From positions 256,001-320,000 of the forward strand of contig CAWFAK010000009.1 of NCBI GenBank assembly GCA_963813715.1: a DNA stretch of 64,000 bases, read 5' to 3'. Source of the stretch: an uncultured Planctomycetaceae bacterium. Its GTDB lineage: Bacteria; Planctomycetota; Planctomycetia; Planctomycetales; Planctomycetaceae. Position 1 is the first letter of the stretch, and the number at the start of each line of letters is the position of its first letter. Positions 1,141 through 44,896 of the stretch are shown in pieces. A program made the translations under genes and the position numbers. Under the pieces are notes generated by a model. It was not told where the DNA came from and searched no databases. It worked only from the letters and a program-made list of their open reading frames with translations.

Positions 1141-1274
1141 TTCACATATAGCCCGCCGCTCGCTACCCTGCAACTTCCCGGCGGCCGCAGGCGGCGAGCG
1201 GGGTGTTCTTCCGCAACGATGCCTGCGTGTCGTCCGGATCTGGCAACGAAGAATCTGCAACGGAGGATCGAACC

Positions 1275-2690
1275 ATGAAAAAGCGCTTTATCGACAAACA
1301 GGGGCGAGCGGCCGCCGCCGTACTGGCGGCCGCTGTCGCTTCGGGAATCGTCTGGTCGACCAGCGTCGGCGCTTACGACGACCCGCCCAGCTCCTACAGC
1401 CCGGTGGTGATCAAGGAGACGTTCCCGCAGATCGAGCAGCGGATGAAGGCCGAGAAGGCGGCCGTGATGCAGCGGCAAAAGGATCTGTTGGCCCAGCGCT
1501 ACGACCTGTCCGACCACCCGTCTGGCGACACCAAAATGGGCCGGCAAAAGCCGGTTCAAGAGGGCGTCCGCGCGAAGTTGCCGACCGGCGTCACGTGGGA
1601 CGAACTGGGCGGAATGACGCCCGATCAGATCAAGGGGAAGGACGCGTTCCCGCCCGGCTTCATGCCCCTGCCCCACCCGCATCATGCTGAAGGCGGCATG
1701 GTCTTCCCCGAGGCCCACATCAAGGAAGTGCTCAAACAAGAGGGGCGCGATCTCAATCGCTTCGACCTCGAGTTCGATCTACCCGAACACTTTCTCCCCG
1801 AGTTCCCGCCGGCCATTTATCTCACAACGCGGCCCGACCTGGGCGACGTGTCCCAGGGCAAGCTGGTCACCATCGAGAACTTTTACGAGCTGTTTAACGG
1901 CATCTTGAATCCCAAGCAGCTGGAAGGTCTGCGGCTGCTGCTGACTCCGTTCGCCCAGCAGCAATTCAACATCACCGAAGATCGGCGTTCGGAGAAGCCG
2001 AGCCGGGGCGTGACCTGCTTCGACTGTCACGCCAACGGCCACACCAACGGCGCATCGCACCTGGTCGGCGATATCCGGCCGCAGCAATTCCGCCATCGCA
2101 TCGAGACCCCCAGCCTCCGCGGAGTCAACATCGAGCGACTGTTTGGCTCGCAGCGGGCACTCAAAACGGTCGAGGACTTCACCGAGTTCGAGCAACGAGC
2201 GGCTTATTTCGACGGCGACCCGGTGATCGCGACCAAGAAGGGCGTCAACATTCTCGATCGTGGCAGCCAGGTCCATTTCATGGCCGAGTTCGAGGAAATT
2301 ATGGACTTCCCGCCCGCGCCCAAGCTCGATTTGTTCGGCAAGCTCGATCCGTCGAAAGCCTCGCAGGCCGAGCTGCGGGGACAGGACGTCTTCTTCGGCA
2401 AAGGGAAGTGCGCGGTCTGCCACGTGGCGCCGTACTACACCGACAACTTGATGCATAACCTCAAAGTTGAGCGGTTCTACAAGCCGCACGACATCAACGG
2501 CGAATACGCGTCGGCGGACGGCCCGATCAAGACGTTCCCGCTGCGGGGCATCAAGGAATCGCCCCCCTACCTGCACGACGGGCGGCTGTTGACGCTCGAC
2601 GACACGGTCGAGTTCTTCAACCTCGTGCTCGGCACCAAGCTGACGGCCGAAGAGAAGACCGACCTGGTGGCGTTCATGAAGTGTCTCTAG
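1275..2690 (+). CDS. Exported di-heme cytochrome c (bacterial cytochrome c peroxidase/MauG superfamily)
   Basis: Signal peptide; CFDCH and CAVCH heme motifs; TPSLRG and PPYLHDG motifs; GGAGG upstream of ATG 1275. Confidence 0.85.
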   Translation: MKKRFIDKQGRAAAAVLAAAVASGIVWSTSVGAYDDPPSSYSPVVIKETFPQIEQRMKAEKAAVMQRQKDLLAQRYDLSDHPSGDTKMGRQKPVQEGVRAKLPTGVTWDELGGMTPDQIKGKDAFPPGFMPLPHPHHAEGGMVFPEAHIKEVLKQEGRDLNRFDLEFDLPEHFLPEFPPAIYLTTRPDLGDVSQGKLVTIENFYELFNGILNPKQLEGLRLLLTPFAQQQFNITEDRRSEKPSRGVTCFDCHANGHTNGASHLVGDIRPQQFRHRIETPSLRGVNIERLFGSQRALKTVEDFTEFEQRAAYFDGDPVIATKKGVNILDRGSQVHFMAEFEEIMDFPPAPKLDLFGKLDPSKASQAELRGQDVFFGKGKCAVCHVAPYYTDNLMHNLKVERFYKPHDINGEYASADGPIKTFPLRGIKESPPYLHDGRLLTLDDTVEFFNLVLGTKLTAEEKTDLVAFMKCL

Positions 2691-2764
2691 TCCGAGACGA
2701 TTTTCCGAAACGAAACCGCGCTTCACAACGCGATCCCTGACGGGTGGCCCTGCGACAGTGGGTT

Positions 2765-2819
2765 GGGGTCCTCATTCCTCCTTGTCCATCTCCAAGGCGG
2801 GGATGGGGACCCCTTTTTT
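2765..2819 (+). terminator. Intrinsic terminator after the cytochrome c gene
   Basis: GGGGTCCTCATTCCTCCTTG...CAAGGCGGGGATGGGGACCCC hairpin followed by T7. Confidence 0.65.
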
Positions 2820-3004
2820 GCCTGCCCGGTGGTCGTCGCAGCGCCCGTTGGGCCAGTCGACGATTGCTCAGCGGGCGATGGCCAAGAGACGTCCCAGTCG
2901 GCAGCAAAAAAATGGGCCGATTGGGCAAATTCCCCTTGTCAGAAGGGGCCGAATTGTCAACCATACATTTATCGGATCGTGCAAACGTAGCACGAGGGAC
3001 GATA

Positions 3005-3237
3005 AGCCGCGAAGGGGTCGGACTTGGCGAGCCGATCGAAGCGGATGGCCTTAACAGAGAGGAGGTGGTCTTGTGAGTTCTGAGTGTAATAGTAGCCAAA
3101 AAGGTGGTAACGCCTAAAGGCAGTCGACGGGCTGTCGACTTGGGCAGCCACCGTCTCGTAAGGATCACCTCCAAAAAATCCTACGAGAACAAAAGAAGGC
3201 TCGGTTCCCCCAGTGGGAGCCGAGCCTTCGTTCTTTT
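3005..3237 (+). ncRNA. Candidate structured RNA containing a 14-codon sORF (3073-3117)
   Basis: Nested helices with G.U pairs; GGAGGTG SD 3061-3067; GTG...TAA 3073-3117; anti-SD GATCACCTCC 3163-3172; terminal terminator. Confidence 0.5.
3187..3237. terminator. Bidirectional intrinsic terminator
   Basis: AAAA-GAAGGCTCGGTTCCC-loop-GGGAGCCGAGCCTTC-GTTCTTTT, immediately downstream of the minus-strand MFS gene. Confidence 0.8.
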
Positions 3238-3264
3238 CCGGACGGCGGTTTTCCGATTCGCGGA

Positions 3265-4749
3265 TCAGATCTCGAGTGGCGCTTCGACGCCGCCGGTGAA
3301 CTCTTCGCCGTCCATCGGCTTGCCGTGCAGGATCTCGACCTTGTAGCCGCCCTTCGCCCGGAAGTAGACGATCAGGATGAGATAGCCGAAGGCCATAAGC
3401 ACGGGGACGATGGCCGTATAGCGCAGGGCCATGCGTCCGCCATAGAGGCGCGCGTCTTCCACAACCGGCGCGTCGGCTTGCTGCTGTGCGTCGAGAGTCT
3501 GATTCGCGTCCACCTTGTCGACCAGCTCGCCGACCTTCTTGCCGTCCAGGCCGGAGATCGGTTCAAAGAAGAGGAAGTGGCTCTTTTCCCCGGCGACATA
3601 CCGCTCGAACGTCGAGGGGGACTTTTCCCGCAGCTCCTTGGCCGCGAAATAGTCCTGCTGGTAGCCGATGCCAGGCCCGCCCAGAAGTCCGGCTGACAGC
3701 ATGCCGATGCCGCCCATCGTGCCCATCGTCAGTGCGCCGCCTTTGGGGAACCGCTCACCGACCACGCCCAGCATCGTCGGCCAGAAGAACGTTTTGCCGA
3801 GCGCGTAGGTTGTTCCCGCGACGAACACCAGGGCCGCCGCACCGGCATAGCTCAAAGCCGACAGGCCGATGGCCGCCAGGCAGGAACCGCAGAAAAGCAG
3901 GCCGATGGGGTTGATCCTCTCGACGATGGGTCCGGCGAAAAATCGCAGCACGAACATCAAAGTCGACATGTAGACGAAGAGCAAAAACGCCTTCCCCTTG
4001 ATCACGTTGTTCATGATGTTCGTGATCCAGCTGTCGGTCCCCAGTTCGACGTAACCGACCATCGCCATCAGCACGACGAGAAACAACAAAATCGGCGAGG
4101 CAAATTCCAGGAGCATCGTGGAAAACCCGACGCCGGCGGCGCGGGCTTCCGAGAGCGGGAATTTCTGGAAGAGGATGATGGAACCGTAAATGGCCGTCGG
4201 AACCAGGAACAGGGCCATCAGGATCTCCCAACGCACCTGTTGGATGGCCGAATTCGCTCCGCAGAAGCAGTACGCGAGCACCCCGCCCAGAACCAGGCCG
4301 CCCGGCCAACCCGCGTGCAGAATGTTGAGGTAATGCGTCTTCTGCCGCGGGTACAACGTCGCCACGAGCGGATTGATCGCCGTTTCGCACAGCCCGTTGG
4401 CGAACGAGAACATGAACATGCCCCAATAGAGGCAGTTGTACGTGGCGGTCTGGCCGAAGGCGGCGTAGATCGGCGTCGCCGCCAGCGTCACCACGGCCGA
4501 CAGCACGTGGAGCAAGAAGGCCAGCATCAAAATGGCCTTATAGCCCAGGCGATCGGTGACGGTGCTGAACAGAATGATGGTGATACCGCCGCCGACGAGT
4601 CCTCCGCCCGTGATTGTGCCGAGCACCTGCTTCGTGAAGCCGAATTGCGACTCCCAGTCGGCCAAGATGGCGCCGCGCAGGGCGAAGCCCAGGCCGGCGG
4701 CGATCAGCGTCATGAAGCTGGCGAAGAAGAGTGGGCGGTTGTTGTTCAT
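3265..4749 (-). CDS. MFS transporter
   Basis: About 12 hydrophobic segments; TDRLGYK MFS loop motif; NILHAGWPGG. Confidence 0.85.
   Translation of the reverse strand: MNNNRPLFFASFMTLIAAGLGFALRGAILADWESQFGFTKQVLGTITGGGLVGGGITIILFSTVTDRLGYKAILMLAFLLHVLSAVVTLAATPIYAAFGQTATYNCLYWGMFMFSFANGLCETAINPLVATLYPRQKTHYLNILHAGWPGGLVLGGVLAYCFCGANSAIQQVRWEILMALFLVPTAIYGSIILFQKFPLSEARAAGVGFSTMLLEFASPILLFLVVLMAMVGYVELGTDSWITNIMNNVIKGKAFLLFVYMSTLMFVLRFFAGPIVERINPIGLLFCGSCLAAIGLSALSYAGAAALVFVAGTTYALGKTFFWPTMLGVVGERFPKGGALTMGTMGGIGMLSAGLLGGPGIGYQQDYFAAKELREKSPSTFERYVAGEKSHFLFFEPISGLDGKKVGELVDKVDANQTLDAQQQADAPVVEDARLYGGRMALRYTAIVPVLMAFGYLILIVYFRAKGGYKVEILHGKPMDGEEFTGGVEAPLEI

Positions 4750-44822: not shown

Positions 44823-44896
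<74 letters not shown>

Follow-up and report, generated by a model that had tools for sequence, protein, structure and literature searches.

A single-copy structured RNA of Planctomycetia with a mini-ORF behind an extended Shine-Dalgarno sequence, a candidate for control by ribosome engagement

Introduction

Dual-function small RNAs (sRNAs) such as SgrS/SgrT, RNAIII/delta-haemolysin and SR1/SR1P combine their own promoter and terminator with a conserved structure and a short translated frame. In mRNAs of the hok/tisB type, the Shine-Dalgarno sequence (SD) is locked by a 3' element and a metastable fold is passed through, while 6S RNA releases the machine that it has bound through the synthesis of a short product. 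Here we describe a locus that shares features with each of these systems, namely a putative gene that stands alone and specifies a structured RNA, about 265 nt long, at roughly 2972–3237 on the + strand, its ends inferred from predicted signals. It lies in 64,000 nt of DNA from an uncultured Planctomycetaceae bacterium (assembly GCA_963813715.1, contig CAWFAK010000009.1, positions 256,001 to 320,000); this whole stretch is called the window, and positions are counted from its first letter.

Like the dual-function sRNAs, the element is predicted to be an independent transcript with a conserved structure and a short frame, but its open reading frame (ORF) is shorter, the product is not conserved and the ORF overlaps the core helices. 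As in hok/tisB-type mRNAs, SD and start codon are predicted to be closed by a downstream segment and freed by a local hairpin in this genome; the peptide, however, is neither hydrophobic nor toxin-like and the masking segment is not conserved. The likeness to 6S RNA is one of analogy only: both are single-copy RNAs of a housekeeping type with an ideal binding site for a core machine, yet there is no similarity in sequence or fold, and the machine would here be the ribosome, not RNA polymerase. Transfer-messenger RNA (tmRNA) is likewise a structured single-copy RNA with a frame of about ten codons; the element differs in having no tRNA-like domain, in carrying an SD and a start codon, and in its fold. 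A covarying 5' domain and core hairpin beside an SD predicted to be masked might suit a riboswitch, but the sole ORF under such control would be the mini-ORF itself, and gene context points to no ligand.

The closest described arrangements are the upstream ORF (uORF) and short ORF (sORF) candidate motifs of comparative genomics, such as the fthC motif (PMC11109978) and the aroF-associated uORFC-13-1 (PMC8632094). They share with the element a stop codon inside a stem followed by a terminator and, in the case of uORFC-13-1, a downstream gene of the same enzyme class, DAHP synthase, in genome family f4. They differ in that the element mostly has no main ORF downstream and no regulatory codon runs, and in the element's far greater size, its 5' domain of two hairpins, its probable loop-loop contact and its occurrence in Planctomycetota only. 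By the definitions of those authors it fits an sORF rather than a uORF.

Results

Sequence comparison delineates a conserved core made up of an extended SD, a mini-ORF, a long hairpin (P1-P2-P3) with the stop codon in it, and a 5' domain of two hairpins, H1 and H2 (Table 1). The RNA family so defined was previously uncatalogued; it is confined to Planctomycetota and is present in single copy in most Planctomycetia. Folding of the + strand at 2990–3245 gave −108.8 kcal/mol with a z-score of −4.71, a value equalled by 0 of 200 shuffles; on the − strand the z-score was −1.76 and 7 of 200 shuffles were equal or better. The original prediction, made from the letters of the window, had seen here an orphan structured RNA of no named family, and this holds against Rfam 15, where no model reaches its gathering threshold at the locus. 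The best sub-threshold match was Pxr on the − strand, lying over the terminator hairpin with 28.4 bits against a threshold of 80.

The original prediction had also proposed a search for homologues across Planctomycetota, and these were found. With 2930–3245 as query, blastn returned one full copy in the window's own genome; of 61 related genomes, 26 gave a clear match (E ≤ 2.1e-5), among them 10 of the 11 others in the genus. A covariance model (R1) was built from the core, with 93 positions and an RNAalifold consensus that pairs the SD with CAGCCACC. It matched 86 of 151 Planctomycetia genomes, each with exactly one copy. By genome family, matches were obtained in 32 of 35 genomes of f1 (which includes the window's genus), 18 of 19 of f3, 21 of 35 of f4, 4 of 5 of f6, all 3 of f11, 2 of 5 of f14 and 2 of 30 of f5. 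In a phylum-wide sample outside f1, R1 matched 2 of 143 genomes, both with the same design of SD, mini-ORF and hairpin. A loose pattern scan of the genomes of 185,579 species gave at least 120 matches, of which those listed were mostly chance hits in GC-rich phyla. When 80 listed loci were rescored with the model, 9 passed, all of them titled planctomycetes and including Kolteria novifilia Pan216; the 71 that failed include six labelled planctomycetes, one of these a Kuenenia metagenome-assembled genome.

No description of the RNA family was found in the full-text literature searched, a body that leaves most subscription journals outside its coverage. The Rhodopirellula-1 motif (Weinberg 2010) was ruled out as its identity, its sequence being unrelated. 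The 6S RNA (RF00013), the signal recognition particle RNA and the tmRNA of the same genome are all located elsewhere, the last being a canonical RF00023 match of 167.9 bits on another contig. ARAGORN found nothing in 2600–3500, so there is no tRNA-like domain in this interval.

Insertions of about 90–105 nt occur in three loci, between the 5' domain and the SD in L013 and L095 and inside the P3 region in L074. The rest of the element is kept in all three, so the junctions appear tolerant of extra sequence. L013 was left out of alignments A6 and A7, and L095 out of A7 (it is a gapped row in A6); the covariation alignments do not include L074, whose insertion falls within the hairpin.

The SD GGAGGTG at 3061–3067, the GTG start at 3073 and the TAA stop lie exactly where they had been placed originally. 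The 16S rRNA of the same genome ends in GGATCACCTCCTTTCT (terminus GGAUCACCUCCUUUCU), and all of the extended site can pair with this tail (Table 1). Leaving aside the antisense of the rRNA gene itself, no other of the 12,750 GGAGG sites in the 7.49-Mb assembly has so long a run. In the family, 62 of 74 distinct sequences have a run of 14 nt or more and none has fewer than 11 nt; GGAGG stands 4–11 nt before the start codon, the distance being 7 nt in 59 of 74. The UGRUC that follows GGAGG (motif GGUGRUC) is nearly invariant and has no conserved partner in cis, which speaks for selection on its pairing with the ribosome. Elsewhere in the genome, long SD-like sites proved uninformative, being mostly without a following start codon. 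The sole other site that pairs with at least 13 bases of the 16S tail before a well-placed start lies on contig C7 near 914241 (−), before a 369-aa ORF. Planctomycetes are among the phyla in which a small share of genes is led by an SD, according to Nakagawa 2017 (PMC5397173).

All 74 distinct family sequences carry an ORF of 9–16 codons. Its end lies within the 5' arm of P2, and in 58 of 74 the stop falls on one and the same model position; these 58 stops are all in frame with their start, at lengths of 10–16 codons that make up seven length classes, and the remaining 16 stops lie within a few bases of that position. Insertions and deletions (indels) inside the ORF are multiples of three, whereas those just past the stop are not. 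The peptides themselves are polar or hydrophilic and differ between genome families, the consensus sequences being MxYDCSSQRGGTV, MCSDNQRRLA, MTCGNQRWLL and MCTNQRWLF. Relative to the GGYGG motif the reading frame is shifted by one base between f1 and f4/f14. Entropies at codon positions 1, 2 and 3 of codons 2–5 are 1.06, 1.34 and 0.91, with no relaxation of the third position. Among 65 distinct peptides no single-residue run exceeds Ser-Ser or Gly-Gly, and composition varies by family. A frame that is kept while its peptide varies indicates that the frame is under selection and the amino acids largely are not; the pattern suggests that the act of translation probably matters more than its product.

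Comparative evidence supports at least five covarying helices, H1, H2 and P1 to P3. One long hairpin downstream of the ORF start was found in every family member folded. For the 5' domain an ordinary MAFFT alignment of 73 sequences was used, which is not fitted to any structure. H1 is paired in 95.2% of cells, and each of its 7 pairs has changed on both sides; both the outer and the inner stem of H2 covary. Taken together, H1 and H2 have 177 doubly changed cells against 61.6 ± 10.2 in shuffled alignments (0 of 500) and 36–59 in slid controls. In P1-P3, with the alignment of 74 distinct sequences to a second model (R2), 89.1% of cells are paired, 13 of 17 pairs are changed on both sides, and for doubly changed cells the count is 88, as compared with 22.3 ± 4.1 shuffled (0 of 500) and 15–27 slid; this alignment is fitted to the model and hence leans towards it. 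Related sequences are not independent, and all shuffle-based counts therefore overstate significance.

The R1 consensus, in which the SD is paired with CCACC, was rejected in favour of P1, because f4 has both P1 strands changed (GGCGGC with GCCGC) and because R2, built with P1-P2-P3, scores 7–9 bits higher than R1 on 9 of 12 divergent f4 sequences. In the family P3 takes the form GRCAGYC, loop GRCG, GGYUGYC. An inner hairpin had been foreseen at this place and is indeed there, but the register AGTCGAC/GTCGACT proposed for it is possible in the window sequence only and gives way to the P3 pairing of Table 1. The 5' hairpin and the 3' terminator of the original prediction are both present; H1 and the promoter-like elements were absent from it.

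Table 1. Coordinates of the features of the element in the window
Feature	Position (strand)	Description
Promoter-like elements	2936..2964 (+)	−35 TTGTCA 2936–2941, 17-nt spacer, −10 AACCAT 2959–2964
Hairpin H1	2977..2995 (+)	stem 2977–2982/2990–2995, loop AAACGUA with conserved CGY
H1-loop CGU	2986..2988 (+)	proposed kissing partner of P3-loop ACG 3127–3129
Hairpin H2	3007..3044 (+)	outer stem CCGC/GCGG, inner stem GGUCGG/CCGAUC, loop ACUUGGCGAG
Extended SD (AGAGAGGAGGTGGTCT)	3056..3071 (+)	16 of 16 pair with 16S 3' tail: 13 Watson-Crick, 3 G.U
Mini-ORF (MSSECNSSQKGGNA)	3073..3117 (+)	14 codons, GTG to TAA; stop TAA 3115–3117
Long hairpin P1-P2-P3	3103..3152 (+)	from minimum free energy folds and covariation
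P1	3103–3108 with 3147–3152 (+)	GGYGG in ORF with CCRCC
P2	3112–3117 with 3140–3145 (+)	variable sequence, contains stop codon
P3	3119–3125 with 3130–3136 (+)	loop GACG 3126–3129
Alternative hairpin P4 (UCUCGUAAGGAU / AUCCUACGAGA)	3154..3188 (+)	CACCUCCAAAAA in loop
Cis anti-SD (CTCGTAAGGATCACCTCC)	3155..3172 (+)	pairs with 3061–3077 in lowest-energy fold
Intrinsic terminator	3195..3239 (+)	15-bp stem and T-rich tail; terminator scan gives 3195–3229

In the lowest-energy fold of the full-length window sequence the SD is masked by the cis anti-SD, with pair probabilities of 0.71–1.0. As had been noticed originally, this segment resembles the 16S tail: it contains GGATCACCTCC, identical to 11 nt of the 3' end of the genome's own 16S rRNA. 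When 3056–3075 was held single-stranded, the same segment paired instead with ATCCTACGAG at 3178–3187, the alternative that the original prediction had proposed for freeing the SD, and P4 was formed. The masked fold has −117.5 and the SD-free fold −105.2 kcal/mol, a difference of 12.3 in the window sequence. P4-like hairpins with changed sequence were read by eye, with no formal count, in relatives, for example CUCAA..UUGAG in L022 and CCUAUCGGA..UCCGAUAGG in f3.

The two-state SD/anti-SD switch of the original prediction thus stands, in computed folds, for the window's genome; as a feature of the family it does not. Many f1 members retain the anti-SD GGATCACC (GGAUCACC), and in f3 the pairing takes a compensating form, GUUCC:GGAAC. 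In the same-genus sisters L008–L011, however, the SD-complementary part is degenerate, and in f4 and f14 the masking element is absent. The predicted pairing probability of the SD averages 0.75 over 75 sequences and is never below 0.3.

The loop of H1 probably kisses the loop of P3, as judged from the complementarity of CGY and RCG. In 71 sequences the one variable pair of this contact is C:G in 41, U:A in 26, U.G in 2 and another combination in 2, while the other two pairs are invariant; three f1 genera, the window's among them, have the U:A form, and it also occurs in f4, f9 and f5. A tree inferred with these loop columns left out shows 4 changes at one site and 5 at the other, which gives 1 to 4 independent pairs, and the sign test is underpowered. 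A second contact, between the H2 loop (UGGC) and the middle of the ORF (GCCA), is proposed tentatively. It showed 25 doubly changed cells against 11.3 ± 2.5 in the column count, and 80.4% pairing against 73.6 ± 1.0 shuffled. An energy permutation gave no support, with means of −11.68 kcal/mol for cognate and −11.72 for non-cognate combinations and 2740 of 5000 permutations as good.

The element looks like a transcription unit of its own, judging from a promoter pattern, terminators and varied neighbours. The promoter-like elements would place the transcription start at about 2971–2975. Their pattern, TTGnnn-N17-nAnnAT, recurs in relatives at a fixed distance upstream of H1; a loose form of it is present in 69 of 75 family upstream stretches, as compared with 20 matches in control stretches, at most 75 in number, 330 nt further upstream. 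A strict sigma-70 scan of the locus found no promoter. An A7 run at 2906–2912, about 25 nt upstream of the −35, is kept within the genus and could be an UP-like element. At the 3' side, 60 of 75 family members have, within 170 nt of the core, a hairpin that resembles a terminator and is followed by a T-rich tail. In the window this hairpin, seen from the − strand at 3188–3259, stands between an A-rich and a T-rich run and thus reads both ways; the convergent gene on the − strand probably ends there too, and the two-way nature of the hairpin accounts for the weak sub-threshold Rfam hits to Pxr and RsmW. The further terminator that had been suggested upstream of the element, at about 2798–2820, is a 4-bp GC hairpin with T6 and failed the terminator scan.

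Around the element, neighbouring genes and their orientations vary in f1 and f3, and no conserved maturase or partner gene was seen near it among the loci compared. Downstream of it, a co-oriented DAHP synthase gene is present in 11 of 12 f4 loci and in the single f9 locus, starting 85–610 nt past the core; in these f4/f9 loci (L069–L084) it encodes DAHP_synth_1 with a ferredoxin-like N-terminal domain. An HD_4 (RelA/SpoT-type hydrolase) gene stands upstream in 8 f4 loci and is absent in L071, L072, L081 and L082. It may be that the order of these genes is conserved, or that the RNA is tied in function to amino-acid or stringent control.

In the window the element occupies a 574-nt gap (2691–3264) between two convergent genes, 1203..2690 (+) and 3265..4749 (−). 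The latter encodes an MFS transporter; the former is a 495-aa ORF with no Pfam match at E 0.01, in which a CxxCH haem motif is present. ORFs overlapping the gap, 2674..3174 (−), 2969..3151 (−), 2744..3076 (+) and 3104..3346 (+), were rejected, as they have no Pfam match and are crossed by non-triplet indels in relatives. The sole Rfam match at gathering level in the whole window is a tRNA at 44823–44896 (−), with 76.5 bits and CAU in the anticodon loop.

Discussion

We lean, with moderate confidence, towards a stand-alone regulatory RNA that would be toggled between a folded, SD-masked state and a state opened by the ribosome. In the folded state the SD would be masked, in this genome by the downstream copy of the 16S tail, and the ORF woven into the structure, with P1-P2-P3 probably docked on H1 by the loop-loop contact. 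In the engaged state a 30S subunit would sit on the SD, and the ribosome, in translating towards the stop, would unzip P1, P2 and part of P3. With the stop codon inside P2, a ribosome standing there must have opened P1, P2 and, by its footprint, part of P3; any contact between H1 and P3 is then broken, so that the folded and the translated RNA are alternative states. The active conformation would accordingly be set by ribosome engagement, and selection would act on translating and not on the peptide. Transcription reaches the 3' mask some 100 nt later than the SD, so that ribosomes would gain access chiefly in a window during transcription, or else whenever the fold opens. The RNA would report translational capacity, or a ligand or protein that stabilises the fold. 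Since no gene follows the element in the window, it would have to act in trans or via its own stability; a role as a trans-acting sRNA is possible.

Several observations weigh against this view. An open frame of 13 codons is not rare by chance, and the case for translation is that of a frame kept across indels, whose independent events are uncounted on a tree. The predicted main partner of the SD varies by lineage, being the 3' tail in 16 of 75 sequences, the 3' arm of P1 in 7 and the 5' domain in 17; this table has no shuffled control, and purine-rich stretches in GC-rich RNA pair readily. The duplex of SD and tail beats shuffled tails (z < −2) in just 17 of 65 sequences. The kissing contact hangs on one variable pair with few independent switches. 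Words of 2700–3700 occur in 24 sequencing runs, 23 of them on record as RNA, and four were examined; the coverage consists of assembled contigs (X1, 2700–3148; X4, 2897–3180; X5 and X6 on the flanks only) from two studies, which begin upstream of the predicted start and carry neither strand nor ends, and are therefore not counted as expression. Finally, the co-oriented DAHP synthase gene in f4 leaves a cis-regulatory role possible there.

The alternative that survives best, although we consider it unlikely, follows from this last point. The element would be a cis-acting leader, a uORF attenuator ancestrally of DAHP synthase and hence of aromatic amino-acid synthesis, which has become detached in Pirellulaceae. 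It does have the order of an attenuator, with SD, short ORF and downstream terminator, and in f4 and f9 a terminator-like hairpin stands between the element and the DAHP synthase gene; uORF motifs upstream of aroF are described in other bacteria (PMC8632094). Against this, the next gene in the window is convergent, which also makes the leader peptide in its classical form, considered in the original prediction, a poor fit to the window, and in f1 and f3 the element keeps its promoter and terminator while its neighbours vary. The f4 peptide has no aromatic codons or codon runs. In the window sequence the terminator forms in all three constrained folds, free, SD-blocked and stop-codon-blocked, and no antiterminator alternative was seen. 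The synteny could moreover be inherited gene order within f4.

Somewhat less room is left for a small-protein gene, in which the peptide of 9–16 residues would itself have the function, perhaps in signalling or as a precursor to be modified, and the RNA structure would only tune its synthesis; this too we regard as improbable. An ORF with the strongest SD of the genome, kept in 74 of 74 sequences, is what such a gene would have, and in f1 and f3 the N-terminal residues are alike (M-E/D-Y/S-D-C), with Cys frequent. The peptides nevertheless differ between families, f1 and f4/f14 are one base apart in their frame as measured against GGYGG, and third codon positions are not relaxed. Conservation and covariation extend past the stop and into the 5' domain, and a conserved maturase or partner gene nearby is wanting.

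It is doubtful, further, that the element is a purely non-coding RNA in which the nucleotides of SD, start and stop have a structural role and no ribosome ever reads the ORF. The motifs flanking the ORF all lie in helices (GGYGG:CCRCC and SD:anti-SD), the amino acids are not conserved, the SD is paired for the most part in the predictions, and the H2 loop may pair with the middle of the ORF. The frame, however, is kept throughout the family across seven length classes, with in-frame indels only inside the ORF; the near-invariant GGUGRUC, which has no conserved cis partner, is better explained by pairing with 16S rRNA than by an internal helix; and the distance from GGAGG to the start is fixed at 7 nt in most sequences.

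By analogy with 6S RNA one may go further and picture a ribosome-directed counterpart, a decoy initiation region that would capture 30S or 70S particles via the whole free 16S tail, in a phylum where SD use is otherwise rare. It would reset itself by making a throw-away peptide of 9–16 residues whose synthesis unzips the RNA, and would sense or buffer free ribosomes and the availability of the anti-SD in slow growth or stress. We think this quite improbable. A site of this kind is the 'perfect' consensus known from Firmicutes, and should mean strong recruitment, not necessarily trapping.

A type I toxin mRNA with an SD locked by a 3' element until processing, the likeness drawn in the original prediction, is very improbable: long-range downstream sequestration of the SD and a possible metastable co-transcriptional fold would suit it, but the peptide of 9–16 residues is hydrophilic, variable and unconserved across families, the element is single-copy, chromosomal and vertically conserved across the class, and the − strand fold (z −1.76) gives no sign of a structured antisense RNA.

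If the reading of a regulatory RNA toggled by the ribosome is correct, it would add a class-wide, single-copy RNA gene that is missing from Rfam 15 to the Planctomycetia, in which almost no regulatory RNAs have been described, and would provide a useful additional annotation for many planctomycete genomes. It would also be a clean natural case in which translating and folding an RNA exclude each other. In a phylum with few SD-led genes, the element would then offer a handle on how the anti-SD is used and on ribosome engagement as a regulatory input.

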